A stretch of DNA of 64,000 bases, taken from positions 192,001 to 256,000 of the forward strand of contig JAVLKG010000002.1 in assembly GCA_032128875.1 (NCBI GenBank), written 5' to 3'. Below the pieces are notes generated by a model. The model made no database searches. It worked only from the letters and a program-made list of their open reading frames with translations, and was not told where the DNA came from. Positions 53,871 to 60,239 of this stretch are shown here, one piece after another; the stretch's first letter is position 1; every line of letters begins with the position of its first letter. The stretch comes from Candidatus Melainabacteria bacterium 17Bon1m (lineage in GTDB: Bacteria; Cyanobacteriota; Vampirovibrionia; Obscuribacterales; Obscuribacteraceae). Both the position numbers and the translations under genes were made by a program.

Positions 53871-54898
53871 AGAATAATCGGAACTGGCAATTTCGTAGCT
53901 ACCGTCTTGTCTGGTGTAGGATGTTAGTCGTCGTTTCCATTGTATTTGTTTGCACAGCGTCTGCTACCATCGCGCAGAGTCCGGCAGCAAAACATAGTGG
54001 ATATGATGAGAATGGTCAGTACTGGCAGTATTCCGATCAAGCTGATTCTGCGAATAAATCTAAAGAATCATCGGAAGTAACCGACAAATCAGCTACGGTT
54101 CAATCCGAGCAAGAAGTAGAACCACTTAAGAGAGAACTGAATTTGAGGGAGCTTCTCTCCAGTCAGCACTCGACTGAAGATGACAACTCATTCGATATGT
54201 CTGCCGAAGAGGAAGAAATGTCATCTACTCAAGATCTTTTGCTGGGACCTGGAAGATGGATTTACAATACGCGCATCGGCAAGAATTTAGCGAAGCATCA
54301 AAATGTCGATATTCGCAGACGACCGATGATGTACTGGCGTCGTTTTGCGGATCGACCAGTTCCACCTCGTGGCACTTTCTTGTTTTTTGTATTCTTCAAC
54401 AGTTTGATTTGTCTGGCGTTTAAGAAGCGTGTAGAAGTTGCTTCAAGTTGCGTGAGAAAGAGCTTCTGGAAGTCACTCTTCGTTGGTTTTACCTTTGTAA
54501 TTTTGATGGGCATCGCCGCACGGTTCTGTTTTGATTCGGCATTGTTTACGCCTGCTGCATTGCTTATTTTAGGCATTGTTCAATTACTTGTTTTGGCAGG
54601 ACTTGCGGTAAGTTCCATGACCGTTGGCACTGCGATTCTCAACAGGCTCGGTGTCACGACAATGTCCGTATCAGAGGCCGAAAGTGTAAGTCACTCAGCT
54701 CATTCGTTTGTAGAAAGACTGAAATGCAAGCTTCACTATCTAGCTCCAGTGATTCTCGCATCAGTGTTGGTAACACTCATCTCCCTGATTCCAACTTTAG
54801 GGTTTTTGCCGCGCATGGGCACACGTTTTGTAATGTGGTTCTGCGTCCTGGGTTTGGGCGCACTGATAAGAACACAGCTCGGTCGTAAGCCTCTATAG
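53867..54898 (+). CDS. Membrane protein, signal peptide plus C-terminal multi-TM domain
   Basis: TTGA overlap with the upstream gene; IPTLG...LGLGAL terminal helices. Confidence 0.7.
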   Translation: MKNNRNWQFRSYRLVWCRMLVVVSIVFVCTASATIAQSPAAKHSGYDENGQYWQYSDQADSANKSKESSEVTDKSATVQSEQEVEPLKRELNLRELLSSQHSTEDDNSFDMSAEEEEMSSTQDLLLGPGRWIYNTRIGKNLAKHQNVDIRRRPMMYWRRFADRPVPPRGTFLFFVFFNSLICLAFKKRVEVASSCVRKSFWKSLFVGFTFVILMGIAARFCFDSALFTPAALLILGIVQLLVLAGLAVSSMTVGTAILNRLGVTTMSVSEAESVSHSAHSFVERLKCKLHYLAPVILASVLVTLISLIPTLGFLPRMGTRFVMWFCVLGLGALIRTQLGRKPL

Positions 54899-54931
54899 CG
54901 GCAACGCCATGAGGCTAACGTCTCTAAAGGT

Positions 54932-54977
54932 GCGTCGCCGGGTTGCCGACGCCGGGCGGCATGTATGCCGTCCCTAC
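54932..54977. repeat. REP-like palindromes
   Basis: GGGCGGCATGTATGCCGTCCCTAC, near identical to 24618-24641. Confidence 0.75.
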
Positions 54978-55017
54978 AGCTGGAAGTCAGGACGTGATTT
55001 CTAGTTGTTTGTTGCAA

Positions 55018-56316
55018 CTACTCTACAACGGACTTTGCTCTCTGGAACATTTTTACCAGCTTTTCAAAATCCTTATCATCGAGCGCATCTGATGCTAGTT
55101 CCAGCTGTTTCACCAATTCTTGAATTGCTGCTTGCAGCTCTTCTTTGTTCTGATTGAAAAGGTCCAGCCACATTTCTGGCGGGCTCTCCATCAAGCGCGC
55201 GAGTTGTTTGAAGGCTGGACCGTGTAATTTCAATTCGTGCTCGGTCACGTTTTGGTCCGCAATTGATGCGCCGAGTGCGACTGCAATCAATTGGACCAGG
55301 TGGCTTGTGCGGGCGAGCACTTTGTCGTGTGATGCCGGCGATGCTTCAACTGGCTTGAGACCGAGACCTTCAAGCCAGCGTCTAAATCGTTTTACTGACA
55401 TTTGCGAGGACTTGTTGGTTGGAGTCAGGCAAAATACCGCATCATTGGTTGCCACCGCAGATGATGCATCCAGTCCTGATTTCTGCGAGCCAAACAACGG
55501 GTGCCCGCCGATAAAATCCGCACCGTGAAGGTCCAAATTCTCAGCTATAGTGCAGATTTCCTTCTTGGTCGACGTGACGTCAACAACTAATTGCCGACGC
55601 GAAAGTTTTGGCGCAATCGATTCCAGCAAGTCAATGTTCTTCTTTGGAGGCGCAGCCAAAATGATAAGGGAAGATCGTTCGGCGGCATTTGATGCCTTAG
55701 TTTCGGCGCAGTCGATCAGCCCTTCGCCGAGCGCTTTTTGCAAGACGTCTGGAGCATCGACTGCGGTGATATTTGTTTTCGGAGAGTGCTTGCGGATCAA
55801 TCTTGCGATTGTTCCACCAATGAGGCCAAGACCAATGATTGTTACTGTGGGAAAGTAACGTTGGGGATTGCGGGTCTGGGCGACCGTTTGCTCAGACGAA
55901 TCTTGGCTCGAATTTGCTGCGACTTGGTCGCGCTTCAATTCTTCTTTCGATTCTGAGTTTGCGTTCGCGCCCGCTTGTGCTTTTGGGCTTGTGGTCTCGC
56001 TGAGTTTTTCCTGCAGACCGCGGCTGCCGGCCAACATGGTCGTGTAGATGTCGACCAGTTGCGCGGCGATAACGGGGTCTGATGCTACTGCGGAGACGCG
56101 GCTAAGAACTTCCTTCTCGCGCTTGTCGTCCAGCACCGGTTTGTTCATGCGCTTTTTAGCTTCGCCGATTTCTTTGCAAAGCATGAGCCGTTCGTTGATC
56201 AGGTTGGCGATCAACTCGTCGAGTTCATCAATTCGCGCTCTTGATTCTTCCAATTTAATTGTTGGCTTTCGCCAATCCAGCTCATCGATTTCATCTAATT
56301 GTAAATGCATTGACAT
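55018..56316 (-). CDS. tyrA: Chorismate mutase (AroQ) - prephenate/arogenate dehydrogenase fusion
   Basis: LEESRARIDELD...ER...IGEAK...DDKRE; IIGLGLIGG, DVTSTK, GGHPLFG, HD...TSH; ATG overlaps the aroF TAA. Confidence 0.92.
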   Translation of the reverse strand: MSMHLQLDEIDELDWRKPTIKLEESRARIDELDELIANLINERLMLCKEIGEAKKRMNKPVLDDKREKEVLSRVSAVASDPVIAAQLVDIYTTMLAGSRGLQEKLSETTSPKAQAGANANSESKEELKRDQVAANSSQDSSEQTVAQTRNPQRYFPTVTIIGLGLIGGTIARLIRKHSPKTNITAVDAPDVLQKALGEGLIDCAETKASNAAERSSLIILAAPPKKNIDLLESIAPKLSRRQLVVDVTSTKKEICTIAENLDLHGADFIGGHPLFGSQKSGLDASSAVATNDAVFCLTPTNKSSQMSVKRFRRWLEGLGLKPVEASPASHDKVLARTSHLVQLIAVALGASIADQNVTEHELKLHGPAFKQLARLMESPPEMWLDLFNQNKEELQAAIQELVKQLELASDALDDKDFEKLVKMFQRAKSVVE

Positions 56317-57257
56317 TACCCCCGAGCTGTTTTGCGCGCAATGCGTTTACGCAGTGTGAGTTTGCCGGCGGATTTTGAACCAATGCCTTGAACCACTGTG
56401 ATCTGTCTTTTCTTTTCTACGTCGCCTGCGACCGAGCGGCCAACAGCGGCGGCGATAGGTTTGATGGATTCGACCAGCTCGACCATGTCTTCGAGGGACA
56501 AGGCTTGGCGGGCATCAGAGACTGACTTTTCCGGTTCGGGGTGGCACTCGATGATCAGTCCATCGGCTCCGCAGGCGACAGCGGCACGTGCCAGGTCTGC
56601 GACCAGTTCGCGTTTTCCGGCTGCGTGGCTCGGGTCTACGATGACGGGCAAGTGTGTCAGTTGTTTGAGAGCGACGACTGCGCCGAGGTCGAGCACGTTT
56701 CTGGTGAATGTGTCGAAGCTGCGGATGCCGCGTTCGCAAAGTACGACATTGGGGTTGCCGTGAGCCATGATGTACTCGGCCGCCAGTAGCATTTCTTCGA
56801 TGGTTGCGGAGAGGCCTCTCTTCAGCAACACTGGCTTTTTGGCTTGGCCAAGGGCTTTGAGCAATTCAAAGTTTTGCATGTTGCGGCTGCCGACTTGCAG
56901 CATGTCTGCCTTTTCATCGCAGGCAGCCAGCTGTTCCACAGACATTACTTCTGTGACTGTGGGCAAGCCATGCTTCTGGCTCATGGATTGTAGGATGTCC
57001 AGCCCTTCTTCGCCGAGTCCTTGGAAGGCGTACGGCGACGAGCGAGGCTTGTGCACACCGCCGCGAATGGCGCTGACAGAGCCTTTCAGCTTTTGTGCGA
57101 CGATTTCCATTTGCTCGGCATTTTCTACTGTGCATGGTCCGCCGATGATGACGATTGGCTTGCCGCCGACTTTAAGAGAGTCACCGATGGCGACTTCGGA
57201 TGTCTGACAGCCTTCGGCTCTGGCGGCTAATTTGACTTGGTTGCTAATCTCGCTCAC
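56316..57257 (-). CDS. aroF: DAHP synthase, type I-beta, without N-terminal regulatory domain
   Basis: [48 protein letters not shown] at 57257 follows GAGGA. Confidence 0.95.
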
Positions 57258-57274
57258 TGTTTGAATCCTCGTGT

Positions 57275-57311
57275 GAAATAGTGAACCCGGGGGACGTATC
57301 CTCCCGGGCTC
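57275..57311 (-). terminator. Attenuator 2 terminator-like hairpin
   Basis: GAGCCCGGGAGGA-TACG-TCCCCCGGGTTC followed by ACTATTTC (weak U-tract). Confidence 0.6.
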
Positions 57312-57346
57312 TTCAGGTAACTGTTTGGTGCACTCAGCGTGCCAGC

Positions 57347-57475
57347 TTAAACCTGCCCGGGCGTTCCCCCTGCAAAAAAGAAGAAGTACCAGTAGTAAGA
57401 AGTTGATGGGCATTGAGTCTTCGCGGACTCAGCGCTTCGGAGGGTTAGGTTGTGGGTTATTTCGGTGTTCATCAT
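57347..57475 (-). CDS. Aromatic amino acid leader peptide 2 (42 aa, MMNTEITHNLTLRSAESAKTQCPSTSYYWYFFFFAGGTPGQV)
   Basis: Hand translation; eight consecutive Tyr/Trp/Phe codons and no other aromatic residue. Confidence 0.8.
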   Translation of the reverse strand: MMNTEITHNLTLRSAESAKTQCPSTSYYWYFFFFAGGTPGQV

Positions 57476-57485
57476 CTTTAGCTCT

Positions 57486-57521
57486 TAAACAAAAACCGCA
57501 GACCTTGTTGAGTCTGCGGTT
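57486..57521 (-). terminator. Attenuator 1 intrinsic terminator
   Basis: AACCGCAGAC-TCAACAAG-GTCTGCGGTT-TTTGTTT, perfect 10 bp stem plus U-tract. Confidence 0.85.
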
Positions 57522-57547
57522 CACCAGTTGGGACAAAGTAAGCTATC

Positions 57548-57598
57548 TCACCCCTGGCGAACCTCAAAGTACCAAAAATAAAAACCAAAATTGCTCAC
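57548..57598 (-). CDS. Aromatic amino acid leader peptide 1 (16 aa, MSNFGFYFWYFEVRQG)
   Basis: GTG start after AAGAGAG; 7 of 8 consecutive codons are Phe/Tyr/Trp. Confidence 0.82.
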   Translation of the reverse strand: MSNFGFYFWYFEVRQG

Positions 57599-57650
57599 GA
57601 CTTACTCTCTTAAATGCCAGGGCGTGCGCCCCGGGCGTTCCAATGCACCC

Positions 57651-57679
57651 ATAGTATGTGCATACCGACGGTGTGTCAA
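57651..57679 (-). promoter_or_regulatory. Sigma70-type promoter of the aroF-tyrA operon
   Basis: TTGACA-N17-TACTAT on the minus strand. Confidence 0.85.
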
Positions 57680-57925
57680 TCAAAAAGTGTCCTGACGGCC
57701 CACGAGTGTCTGCAAAAAAATACGATGAGGATGCCGCAAATGCTTGGTAGTACAGGTTTTTGGGCGTGAAGCTTTTAGGTGCCATTGTGTAAAGCGTCAA
57801 TCGAAACATATCTGCGCAAAACCAAAACCACGCAAGTTCCGCATGTTTGGCGCGTCTTCACATACTTATGCTGACCGAACGTTCAACAAATGAATGCGAT
57901 CGAGAGAACTTCTTTCATTCAATAG

Positions 57926-57985
57926 ATCTCTTTGTCCAAATCTCTTCGTCTAAATCTCTTCGTCTAAATCTCTTTGTGCAAATCC
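57926..57985. repeat. Tandem 14 bp repeat ATCTCTTYGTSYAA x4
   Basis: Units start at 57926, 57940, 57954, 57968. Confidence 0.85.
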
Positions 57986-58253
57986 TTATATAGAAGAAGT
58001 TGGATCAAATCCGGGAAATTGGCTCCCTCTTTTCCGTCAGGGTGGGAAGATTGTTATAGGCATCAGTTATAAGCATCAATTCTTCCGCGGTTTTCGGAAT
58101 TTTTGGTTTTGGGCGTTCAAAGTAGGCACTATTGAGATTTTGCTGCGTCAGCGTTGTGAAAGGAAACTCTGATATCCACTAAGAGCAGGAAGTTTGGCGG
58201 TTCGCCATGGGCGAGAGACGAGACTGCGTTGAGAGTCTGTAAGAGAGAAGAAC

Positions 58254-58724
58254 ATGAGTTCAATGAACATTCTGGTCGCCATTGATGATTCGACGTTTTC
58301 GGACGCCGCTATCTCTTCTGTAATAGAGCGGAGCTGGCCGGAGGGCTCGAAGTTTAAGCTGCTCAGCGTCGTGGAGCCGTTTCACCCTGAATACGCCGGC
58401 TGGCATACAAACTACATGCCTGTGGCTGTTGAAGCTCAAAAGGAGTTGGTCGAGGCGGCAAAAACGCTGGTCAACGAGAAGGTAAAGCAGCTGACGAGCA
58501 CTTTTGGACGGGAAAGCGTCTTGGCTGAGGTTCGAGAAGGATATGTCACGGATACGATTCTGGAGGCAGCCAAAGAATGGCCGGCAGACCTCATTGTCGT
58601 TGGGTCACACGGGCGCACAGGCATCACCCGCTTGCTTTTAGGTAGCGTCTCGGAGGCGGTTGTATCTCAGGCGCCTTGCTCGGTCGAAATAGTAAAAATG
58701 CCCAAAAAGCATGCTAAGGCTTAG
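58254..58724 (+). CDS. Universal stress protein
   Basis: ILVAIDDS, DLIVVGSHGRTG...LLGSVSEAV...APCSV. Confidence 0.95.
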   Translation: MSSMNILVAIDDSTFSDAAISSVIERSWPEGSKFKLLSVVEPFHPEYAGWHTNYMPVAVEAQKELVEAAKTLVNEKVKQLTSTFGRESVLAEVREGYVTDTILEAAKEWPADLIVVGSHGRTGITRLLLGSVSEAVVSQAPCSVEIVKMPKKHAKA

Positions 58725-59210
58725 TTTTCGGCATTTTATTAGATTGAGTCTTTGTTAAAACGGCATGAAAAAGACGCCCCCTGGAGGGCGCCTGATTTCC
58801 TGAATGCCGGAATTAGGCGTGCTTTTCGGCTTCGTCTTCCGGAAGGTTTTCCCAAGAGTCGAAATAAGCCTTCTTTCCGCCCATCCAAAGCGAAAGAAGA
58901 ACCCAAATTCCCATAATGGAAATCAGAACGATTGGCGTTGTTGAAGCTGGCGTGTTTTCCATTGTTCACCCGGTATTTGACTGTTTTGAAAGCTGAAAGA
59001 CCTGCTACTGGCTGAGTATACAGCAATAGCCACTCCTCAGATTATAAACATTTGAACCGCAGGTTGGTAGTATTAACTCCAATTAGCTTCCTCTTGTAAT
59101 TGCCACAGATTGAGGCTCTGGCGCTATAAAGCGGCTCATGGCTTCTATTAGCTATGTGCTATAAAGACGGTTGGTTTCAACACCGTCAGGGTGAGAAGAG
59201 GAATTTTTCA

Positions 59211-60239
59211 ATGAGTTCTAAACGTTATTCGTCGCTGCTTTTGACTGCTTTGTTTATCAGTTCTACAGCAGCTGCCAACGCCGGTTCTAAGTCCATGCTG
59301 GACCCATACGCCGCCGTTCAAGCGCCTCCCAGCAAGAAACCGAAACCTATCGCTCGCCCGGCACATCAAGATGTGACCGAGTCGACGCATACAACTTATA
59401 TATCGATGCCGATGCCAGCCGAAGAAGCAGCGAAAGCCAATGGCGGTGGCGGAAAGTTCGGCGGGCTCTTTGGTGGCAAGAAAGAAAAAGTTGCCAAGGC
59501 TCCGAAGCCGGAGAAAGTTGCAGAAGCGCCAGCCGAGAAAGGTGATGGCATTGCAGCCAAGTCTCTTGATTCGGTAAAGAGTGCTGGTTCGACCATCGTA
59601 GGCGGCACTAAAGCGGCGGGTTCCAAAATCGCTGAAGGTTCGAAAGTAGTTGGTGGCGGCATTGCCACCGGTGCTAAGAAAGTGGGCGGTGGAATCGCCA
59701 GCGGAGCCAAAGTCTCCGGAGATTATTTGATGAAGGGCGTTCACGCCATCGGTCACGGTTTTAAGGCCACCGGTGAAAAGGTGAAAGACGGCGCCGGATC
59801 TGCAGGCTCTAAAGTTGCCGGGCTTCCCAAACTTCCCAAACTCTGGGGCAAGAAAGGCGGTGGCGGCCAAGAAAAGGCAAAGCAAGAAGCAATCGCCAAA
59901 GCAGTAGCTGAAAGAAAAGCCGCACAGCAAGGCGCTGCGCAACAAGGACAAGAAGTCGCCAAAGATTCAGAATGGAACAGCGATCCAGTAGCTAATGGTG
60001 AATCCAAGCCAGTTCCGATTGCCTCTCCTGGTCAACAAAATACTGTTGGATTCCAGGCACTGCAACAGCAAGCGAGCAGAGGACAGAGTAAAGGCGGCGG
60101 TATCACCGGCGGATTCTCGAAAGCAATCGGCAAGTTGAATCCCTTTGGTGGCAAGTCCAATTCAGCAGTGCACCCTGTAGTTCGCCCGCAATCAATGAAT
60201 CAATCGACTGCGGCAACTCAAGAAGCAATCCCGCAATAA
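59211..60239 (+). CDS. Secreted Gly/Lys/Ala-rich protein with 11-residue repeats
   Basis: AGAGG RBS, signal peptide, GSKIAEGSKVV/GGGIATGAKKV-type repeats. Confidence 0.75.
   Translation: MSSKRYSSLLLTALFISSTAAANAGSKSMLDPYAAVQAPPSKKPKPIARPAHQDVTESTHTTYISMPMPAEEAAKANGGGGKFGGLFGGKKEKVAKAPKPEKVAEAPAEKGDGIAAKSLDSVKSAGSTIVGGTKAAGSKIAEGSKVVGGGIATGAKKVGGGIASGAKVSGDYLMKGVHAIGHGFKATGEKVKDGAGSAGSKVAGLPKLPKLWGKKGGGGQEKAKQEAIAKAVAERKAAQQGAAQQGQEVAKDSEWNSDPVANGESKPVPIASPGQQNTVGFQALQQQASRGQSKGGGITGGFSKAIGKLNPFGGKSNSAVHPVVRPQSMNQSTAATQEAIPQ

Follow-up and report, generated by a model that had tools for sequence, protein, structure and literature searches.

Can a leader peptide switch still govern an operon when the hairpin that it controls is followed by only a poor tract of U? 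This question is raised by positions 57,275 to 57,475 of a 64-kb window (the whole stretch of DNA analysed, 64,000 nucleotides (nt) of contig JAVLKG010000002.1) from Candidatus Melainabacteria bacterium 17Bon1m, a Candidatus Melainabacteria/Obscuribacterales metagenome-assembled genome (MAG) of 7.55 Mb and 93% completeness. Here, a DAHP synthase gene (aroF) is preceded by two short, aromatic-rich open reading frames (ORFs), and the second of these, together with the hairpin behind it, forms the element that we call attenuator 2. From its anatomy, homology and covariation, we infer that attenuator 2 is probably the second of two serial, ribosome-mediated transcription attenuators carried on one leader transcript, ahead of an operon for DAHP synthase and a chorismate mutase/prephenate dehydrogenase. 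Most likely, these tandem switches serve to induce the gene for the first step of aromatic amino-acid synthesis during a shortage of Phe, Tyr or Trp.

The second leader and its alternative RNA folds

All features of the aroF leader region lie on the minus strand, and coordinates are those of the window. Attenuator 2 consists of the following parts, in the order in which they would be transcribed:

57482..57486, minus: Shine-Dalgarno (SD)-like AAGAG of leader 2, 6 and 9 nt before two ATGs
57347..57475, minus: leader ORF 2 including its TAA stop, 42 amino acids (aa), MMNTEITHNLTLRSAESAKTQCPSTSYYWYFFFFAGGTPGQV; 41 aa from the conserved ATG at 57472
57415..57430, minus: small hairpin GAGUC-N6-GACUC within the leader-2 coding region, tentatively a pause hairpin
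57374..57397, minus: putative sensor UAC UAC UGG UAC UUC UUC UUU UUU (YYWYFFFF, Y27 to F34)
57351..57370, minus: antiterminator 5' strand, GGGGGA (57370-57365) and CCCGGGCAGGU (57361-57351), ending at the stop codon, as seen in the minimum free energy (MFE) fold
57319..57347, minus: inner stem-loop inside the antiterminator (AGCUG/CAGUU, GCAC/GUGC)
57303..57318, minus: shared strand ACCUG-AAGAG-CCCGGG, whose partner is either the leader 3' end or the hairpin 3' arm
57286..57308, minus: terminator-2 hairpin CCCGGG-A-GGA UACG UCC-CCCGGG, with 9 pairs and one bulge
57275..57285, minus: degenerate U tail UUCACUAUUUC, with 5 U in its first 9 nt

Leader 2 is a short ORF with an SD-like sequence and a start codon upstream of a biosynthetic operon, and we predict that it is translated; its AAGAG aligns with AAGGAG in Nostocales orthologues. 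A first-pass annotation of this DNA had placed an ATG about 10 nt after the terminator of the preceding unit (terminator 1) and had seen all aromatic residues of the peptide in one block, YYWYFFFF. Both observations hold, as the ATG lies 11 nt past the last U of terminator 1, and F, Y and W are confined to codons 27-34, where all eight residues are aromatic. The same annotation gave the leader 42 aa; an ORF of that length is present, but its first ATG (57475) occurs in only 6/13 genomes of the genus. The second ATG (57472) is the one kept in 13/13, and the conserved leader 2 is therefore 41 aa long. Such a density of aromatic codons is rare, with at least 7 aromatic residues in 8 found at only 26 places in a six-frame translation of the whole genome (7.55 Mb), most of them poly-T runs, and both leaders of the aroF locus are among these. 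We examined four further aromatic-rich places, three of which mix F, Y and W and one of which has F and Y only; none has a start together with a terminator and an aromatic-pathway gene downstream.

The 3' end of the leader offers two mutually exclusive pairings that share one strand. The sequence CCCGGGCAGGU (57361-57351) is complementary to ACCUG(AAGAG)CCCGGG (57318-57303), and this pairing encloses the inner stems AGCUG/CAGUU and GCAC/GUGC (57347-57319). The alternative is the GC-rich, UACG-loop hairpin, which is followed by UUCACUAUUUC and lies just 5' of the aroF ribosome-binding site (RBS), ending 15 nt upstream of its SD. All of these elements had been proposed in the first-pass annotation and are present as described. 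Within the genus, CCCGGG:CCCGGG is paired in 97.4% of alignment cells and CAGGU:ACCUG in 100%; all 9 pairs of the inner stem-loop are invariant in 13/13 genomes, with its loop varying at two positions, and the loop of the terminator-2 hairpin varies freely (UACG, GAGCAAAGA, AGGACGAAAAG and others). Pairing of GGGGGA:UCCCCC reaches only 73%. This third antiterminator helix is specific to a few genomes, and the antiterminator is unusually long here, at 17 pairs. The small GAGUC/GACUC hairpin in the coding region is paired in 96.9% of cells, with one pair broken in 2/13 genomes and a U-A pair changed to U-G in 2/13. Folding of the complete 411-nt leader gave z = -3.08, with 0/100 shuffles as good.

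Across wider distances, both pairings are kept through compensatory changes. In an alignment of 50 sequences from several lineages (A2), the terminator hairpin helix has 88.1% of its cells paired and 45 changed on both sides, with 0/500 shuffles as high and slid controls at 60-61%. The corresponding values for the antiterminator helix are 80.2% of cells paired, 44 changed on both sides, 0/500 shuffles as high and slid controls at 53-55%. In the shared strand, column 96 changes from A to G together with column 113 (AU 23, GC 17) and also with column 37 (UA 22, CG 23); at the level of the alignment, this double covariation is the signature of a strand that would need to pair both ways. The earlier proposal of a leader-peptide switch with mutually exclusive pairings is borne out in this respect, since both are retained with compensatory changes across the 50 orthologues.

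The predicted behaviour of the window RNA is consistent with such a switch. We folded it at equilibrium up to the end of the hairpin, with a masking ribosome placed by its A-site codon. In the free RNA, the antiterminator was predicted with a probability of 0.88. The hairpin was favoured (0.97-0.99) when the A site lay at the stop codon or within codons 35-41, and the antiterminator (0.86-0.997) when it lay within codons 27-31; codons 32-34 gave intermediate values. In the model, a ribosome at the stop codon thus masks the antiterminator strand, and a ribosome on the regulatory codons frees it.

We postulate the following course of events. An RNA polymerase that passes terminator 1 would transcribe leader ORF 2. 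With an ample supply of charged Tyr-, Trp- and Phe-tRNA, the translating ribosome would reach the stop codon and cover CCCGGGCAGGU, so that ACCUG..CCCGGG could join the downstream arm to form the GC hairpin. If one or more of these tRNAs ran short, the ribosome would stall on YYWYFF, and the leader 3' end could then pair with ACCUG..CCCGGG as an antiterminator that blocks the hairpin. By homology, the hairpin would end transcription before DAHP synthase, and the antiterminator would permit read-through into the gene. Because all three kinds of aromatic codon are mixed in the block, the switch would combine Phe, Tyr and Trp in the manner of an OR gate. Both leaders carry such a mix, so that a shortage of any one aromatic amino acid should be felt by each unit, which would suit the first enzyme of the common pathway, and two switches in series should multiply repression.

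A family of tandem leaders in the Cyanobacteriota

The orthologous DAHP synthase gene, with the whole leader, is present in each of the 12 other genus genomes. When the 650 nt upstream of 98 DAHP-synthase loci were scanned for short ORFs with at least 5 aromatic residues in 8, two tandem aromatic leader ORFs were found in 13/13 genus genomes, and two or more at 84/98 loci. The carriers include records named Nostoc, Cylindrospermum, Brasilonema, Stenomitos, Desertifilum, Oculatella and Microseira, in which leader 1 typically ends in ..SYFYFWFRVVHRE and leader 2 in ..SWFYGFYFWPRxSSG. Among the 14 loci without tandem leaders, four had less than 170 nt of upstream sequence, and six come from distantly related members of the class, order or family (about 50% identity), in which the upstream sequence, judged by eye, seems to continue the gene in frame like an N-terminal extension. 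The remaining four are Obscuribacterales with weaker or single leaders (L019, L020, L046 and L076).

Two of the relatives showed arrangements of their own. A family-level relative (locus L021, genome G013) has two type-1 units in tandem (..FYFWY..EVHLG, with the terminator GAACCGCAGA) and not a type-1 unit followed by a type-2 unit, which looks like a duplication or replacement of units. In Stenomitos frigidus, the aromatic attenuators are preceded, at a distance of about 800 nt and on the opposite strand, by a cobalamin riboswitch (L062:401-604, minus strand; 44.5 bits, E = 2.2e-8).

For the second unit, a covariance model (R1) returned one match in the source genome (57276-57388, E = 5.1e-13), which is partly by construction, as the window sequence is in the model's seed. 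Independent support for family membership is given by the alignment with 49 other loci and by gene context. R1 was also run against 151 genomes sampled evenly from the phylum, of which 24 match at E ≤0.001. DAHP synthase lies in the same 3-kb locus at 20/30 of the returned loci, in 20 genomes (the source genome included); the other 10 loci, weak matches plus one truncated contig end, are without DAHP synthase. Attenuator 2 matches the model, lies upstream of a DAHP synthase gene and follows a first aromatic leader with its terminator. Judged by sequence, it is one member of a family spread through the Cyanobacteriota. As to how the family came to be so distributed, a quick tree of DAHP synthase places the Obscuribacterales rows at the base without resolving them from the oxyphotobacterial rows, and is compatible with vertical descent of DAHP synthase as well as with an old transfer.

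What has been conserved is the RNA. The orthologous leader-2 peptides range from 19 to 54 aa and have in common only the aromatic run and an RNA-constrained tail. In the genus alignment (306 columns), the 130-nt 3' part from the aromatic block to the hairpin is almost invariant, and no alignment could be made out by eye for the DNA ahead of the -35 box. One genus member (L003) shifts frame between the aromatic block and the stop, so that its peptide ends in AGDARAG, and the stop still adjoins the antiterminator strand; in two others (L004 and L005), leader 2 runs on for four more codons before its stop. As far as sequence comparison can indicate, such a pattern agrees with selection on the RNA and on the position of the ribosome, and not on the peptide.

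The degenerate U tail and competing explanations

The feature that sets the genus apart is the tail of the hairpin. We counted the U residues among the 9 nt that follow the hairpin's GC core. Oxyphotobacterial loci have a median of 8, with at least 6 in 52/55 (in the three with low values, a wrong and more distal hairpin had been picked), and other Melainabacteria have a median of 6.5 (n = 16, three of these being type-1 terminators). In the genus, the median is 5, and 10/13 tails read UUCACUAU followed by U or C, with 4-5 U. The tail of the window, UUCACUAUU, has 5 interrupted U in 9 nt, compared with the orthologue median of 8. The earliest-branching genus member in a quick gene tree (L013) reads UUUCUUUUU, and the tails of L006 and L010 are UUUCUUAUU and UUUCGUAUU. 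The U run of terminator 1 is kept in every sequence read. Because the hairpin has a canonical tail in most oxyphotobacterial orthologues, with 7-8 U in 9 nt, the weak tail of attenuator 2 is a derived trait of the genus. In Synechococcus elongatus, lower read-through is described as going with higher terminator U content (PMC12642595), and a leaky terminator is therefore the simplest expectation here. With this decayed tail and its unusually long antiterminator, attenuator 2 of this genome is probably leaky as a terminator, or depends on help from NusA or NusG. The first-pass annotation had listed several options for this switch, and of these a weak terminator, as the orthologue of canonical terminators, fits best; Rho dependence has lost ground, as no rho gene was found in the genome, which is 93% complete.

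Several observations weigh against a working terminator under the control of leader 2. With 4-5 interrupted U in 9 nt, the tail is poor for an intrinsic terminator, and it is from homology only that termination at hairpin 2 would be expected. The folding energy of a 241-nt stretch is unremarkable (z = -1.21, 28/200 shuffles as good). Covariation within the genus is uninformative, given that the stems do not vary in its 13 genomes, and the shuffle controls for the wider alignment overstate significance because the aligned sequences share ancestry. When the equilibrium model was applied to orthologues, only 10/78 gave a clear switch, defined as a hairpin probability above 0.8 at the stop codon with a median below 0.2 on the aromatic codons, and in most the hairpin wins in every state. 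(Nine loci with a degenerate or type-1-only second unit, or with a wrongly picked hairpin, were left out of the tests on 78 orthologues: L019, L020, L021, L076, L056, L058, L080, L106 and L109.) Since the equilibrium model favours the hairpin in most orthologues, the mechanism there must be kinetic. Indeed, before the 3' arm is transcribed, the MFE structure holds at least 5 antiterminator pairs in 55/78 orthologues, versus 14.5% of controls with a shuffled leader strand. In addition, the untranslated RNA of the window is predicted to read through, and no protector (1:2) hairpin was found; the E. coli trpL leader behaves otherwise. Four 'transcriptomic' runs from one sample contain all or 99% of the sampled query words, and over 56600-58100 they yield contigs of 4.7-9.6 kb with flat depth, which are consistent with DNA and silent on 3' ends. 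In one of these runs, two contigs meet within terminator 1 (57502-57515), and the three other runs bridge this point; the break is probably an effect of assembly.

If the tail is set against the apparent lack of Rho, a different way of acting at the same hairpin comes into view. In a Rho-less lineage in which the deeply conserved switch has lost its U tract but kept hairpin and antihairpin, RNA polymerase might be stopped or delayed non-canonically, be it by the hairpin only, with assistance from NusA or NusG, or as a regulated pause; we regard this as a tentative possibility.

A related proposal is that, in this genus, switch 2 no longer terminates at all and has become a pause site, an element of processing or stability, or a relic, with only attenuator 1 left to regulate. 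The weak tail recurs in 10/13 genus genomes and in three other Obscuribacteraceae (L014, L015 and L017) while terminator 1 keeps its U run, three genus genomes have a stem of only 6 base pairs (bp), and most 3' ends in S. elongatus are described as non-canonical (PMC12642595), all of which would agree with a loss of termination. Against this, the 130-nt 3' part has stayed nearly invariant in the genus while the promoter-distal DNA and the N-terminal codons of the leader diverged, which points to continued selection. The position of the stop relative to the antiterminator was kept despite the frame shift in L003, and the first two positions of the tail are still U. We therefore consider a loss of termination unlikely.

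It is very unlikely that leader 2 acts on translation instead. Such control would use the Phe-codon sequence UUCUU (57384-57380), which can pair with the aroF SD GAGGA, so that translation of leader 2 would open the SD in a mixed cascade. The full-leader MFE structure does pair 57270-57266 with 57380-57384, and the modelled probability that the SD is unpaired rises from 0.42 in the free RNA to 0.68-0.69 with a ribosome on leader 2. Yet this is a 5-bp helix with one G-U pair that closes about 110 nt of loop, the model gives it a small effect, and the SD would be opened by any translation of leader 2 and not by starvation specifically. Both strands are invariant in the genus, so that covariation is uninformative for this helix. 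Moreover, the gene start of relatives is found 61-423 nt beyond the stop of leader 2, and the family thus does not work through SD pairing. Nor does the hairpin sequester the RBS, as it ends at 57286 and the SD (57270-57266) lies outside it by 15 nt. On these grounds, the mixed transcription/translation cascade suggested in the first-pass annotation is not upheld.

Rho-dependent termination further downstream, with the hairpin only marking a processed 3' end, is extremely improbable. A GC hairpin without a strong U tract does resemble the processed Rho-dependent ends described for E. coli (PMC12642595), but the genome, at 93% completeness, gave no match to Rho_RNA_bind (PF07497), a domain that the control search found in 9/14 known genomes, and its best match to TIGR00767 scored 34.6 bits against a cut-off of 509. 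The absence of rho is likely rather than proven because the genome is 93% complete. Finally, it is hardly credible that the 42-codon ORF encodes a functional small protein and that the RNA pairings are incidental: although the frame is open in 13/13 genus genomes, its N-terminal half varies freely, its C-terminal residues can change by frame shift with the RNA kept (L003), its orthologues have in common only the aromatic run and the tail, it belongs to no family in Pfam or NCBIfam, and one predicted 46-aa 'hypothetical protein' is the only similar sequence among 5.8 billion proteins.

The surrounding locus, known systems and wider meaning

The remaining parts of the leader transcript and its operon are as follows:

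57651..57679, minus: predicted sigma-70-like promoter of the leader transcript (TTGACA, 17 nt, TACTAT; 10/12 matches)
57548..57598, minus: leader ORF 1 (GTG..TGA), MSNFGFYFWYFEVRQG, 16 aa, belonging to attenuator 1
57487..57522, minus: terminator 1, a 12-pair stem (57522-57493) and then the U-rich tail UUUUUGUUU to 57487
56316..57270, minus: SD GAGGA (57270-57266), GTG start (57257) and DAHP synthase gene (313 aa)
55018..56316, minus: chorismate mutase/prephenate dehydrogenase fusion, 432 aa, the downstream gene of the operon (Pfam CM_2, PDH_N, PDH_C)

The TTGACA is present upstream in 13/13 genus sequences, leader ORF 1 is kept in 13/13 genomes, and the stem pairs of terminator 1 are invariant or G-U in 13/13. 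The RNA core of attenuator 1 (57487-57598, minus strand), GGUUCACCUGG .. CCAGGUGAACCGCAGA .. UCUGCGGUUUUU, shows near letter-for-letter identity from the genus to Nostocales, which is unusually strong sequence conservation for a terminator stem.

The DAHP synthase product matches Pfam DAHP_synth_1 (E = 5.2e-74), and its closest relatives, at 85-97% protein identity, come from MAGs assigned to Candidatus Melainabacteria, Obscuribacterales or Obscuribacteraceae. A 365-aa ORF (56316-57413, minus strand) starts at an out-of-frame ATG within leader 2 and continues in frame into DAHP synthase, and a gene caller could wrongly extend the enzyme across attenuator 2 by this route. Such an N-terminal extension is not coding, as the length of the open frame varies from 324 to 370 aa in the genus. 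A second DAHP synthase paralogue (66% identity) lies on contig C8 (C8:7719-8498, minus strand), with no aromatic leader ORF in its 600 nt upstream.

Some repeats also mark the region. At about 57935-57990 (minus strand), some 270 nt upstream of the promoter, three head-to-tail units of about 15 nt (AGAGAUUUAGACGA-like) could be an array of binding sites or a simple repeat. Two exact copies of a 12-nt direct repeat, GGAACGCCCGGG, lie on the minus strand, one at 57630-57641, in the 5' end of the leader transcript, and one at 57356-57367, in leader 2. The MFE structure of the 411-nt leader pairs the distant regions that hold the two copies, and relatives carry a CCGGG-ACG-CCCGG hairpin at the site of the 5' copy.

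Amino-acid leaders are represented in Rfam by families such as Phe_leader and Trp_leader. No Rfam amino-acid leader matched 54000-60000 (cmscan, E up to 10, with only two chance-level matches) or six orthologous loci (E up to 1). A textbook comparison is with attenuation at the E. coli pheL and trpL leaders, as summarised in PMC11802643. Attenuator 2 shares with these a short leader ORF with a run of regulated codons, a terminator 5' arm that also serves the antiterminator, and masking of the antiterminator strand by a ribosome at the stop codon. It differs from them in that it has no sequence or Rfam relation to them, would sense three amino acids at once, shows no protector (1:2) hairpin, stands as one of two attenuators in series and has a weak U tail.

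The leader aroR of Corynebacterium glutamicum reportedly goes back to a source study by Neshat et al. 2014. This leader lies upstream of aroF, contains Phe-Tyr-Phe, forms a single attenuator and is described as responding to Phe and not to Tyr (PMC11802643). As in attenuator 2, an aromatic leader peptide precedes DAHP synthase, and stalling is described as enhancing read-through. Compared by description only, attenuator 2 differs in its eight aromatic codons (including Trp), its tandem arrangement and its phylum. In Acholeplasma, uORFC-13-1 is a Phe-codon upstream ORF placed directly before an intrinsic terminator upstream of aroF, and was proposed as an attenuator (PMC8632094). Its order of Phe-codon ORF and then terminator ahead of aroF is that of attenuator 2, but it is a single unit in which the U run codes for Phe, and it is described from Acholeplasma and environmental sequences only (PMC8632094). 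A tandem arrangement is known from the Salmonella mgtCBR leader, whose two short ORFs are each described as thought to control the choice of stem-loop and the transcription of the coding region (PMC3641672). Both ORFs of the aroF leader carry the same Phe/Tyr/Trp codon mix. The signals of the two mgtCBR leader ORFs, in contrast, differ from each other.

The mechanism that we postulate is, therefore, a textbook one, and the local peculiarities of attenuator 2 are its long leader, its three-helix antiterminator and its decayed U tail. A family of such leaders common to cyanobacteria and their non-photosynthetic relatives seems undescribed, as the open full-text literature yielded no account of attenuation by leader peptides in either cyanobacteria or Melainabacteria (subscription journals and supplements lay outside the search). 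The series of tails on one conserved hairpin, from UUUUUU to UUCACUAU, offers a handle on what a cyanobacterial-type RNA polymerase needs for termination. If the stop at hairpin 2 is indeed non-canonical, attenuator 2 would be a natural, ribosome-controlled test case for the undescribed mode of termination that is suspected in Cyanobacteriota in the account of PMC12642595.

More broadly, the family provides a hypothesis for how flux into the shikimate pathway is set in cyanobacteria and their relatives, which may interest metabolic engineers. For attenuation by a leader peptide to work, a ribosome has to follow close behind RNA polymerase. As the two-stage attenuator has been kept from Melainabacteria to Nostocales, such coupling and control are implied in the phylum. 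If our interpretation is true, the tandem pair would be evidence of tight transcription-translation coupling and of classical attenuation across the Cyanobacteriota.

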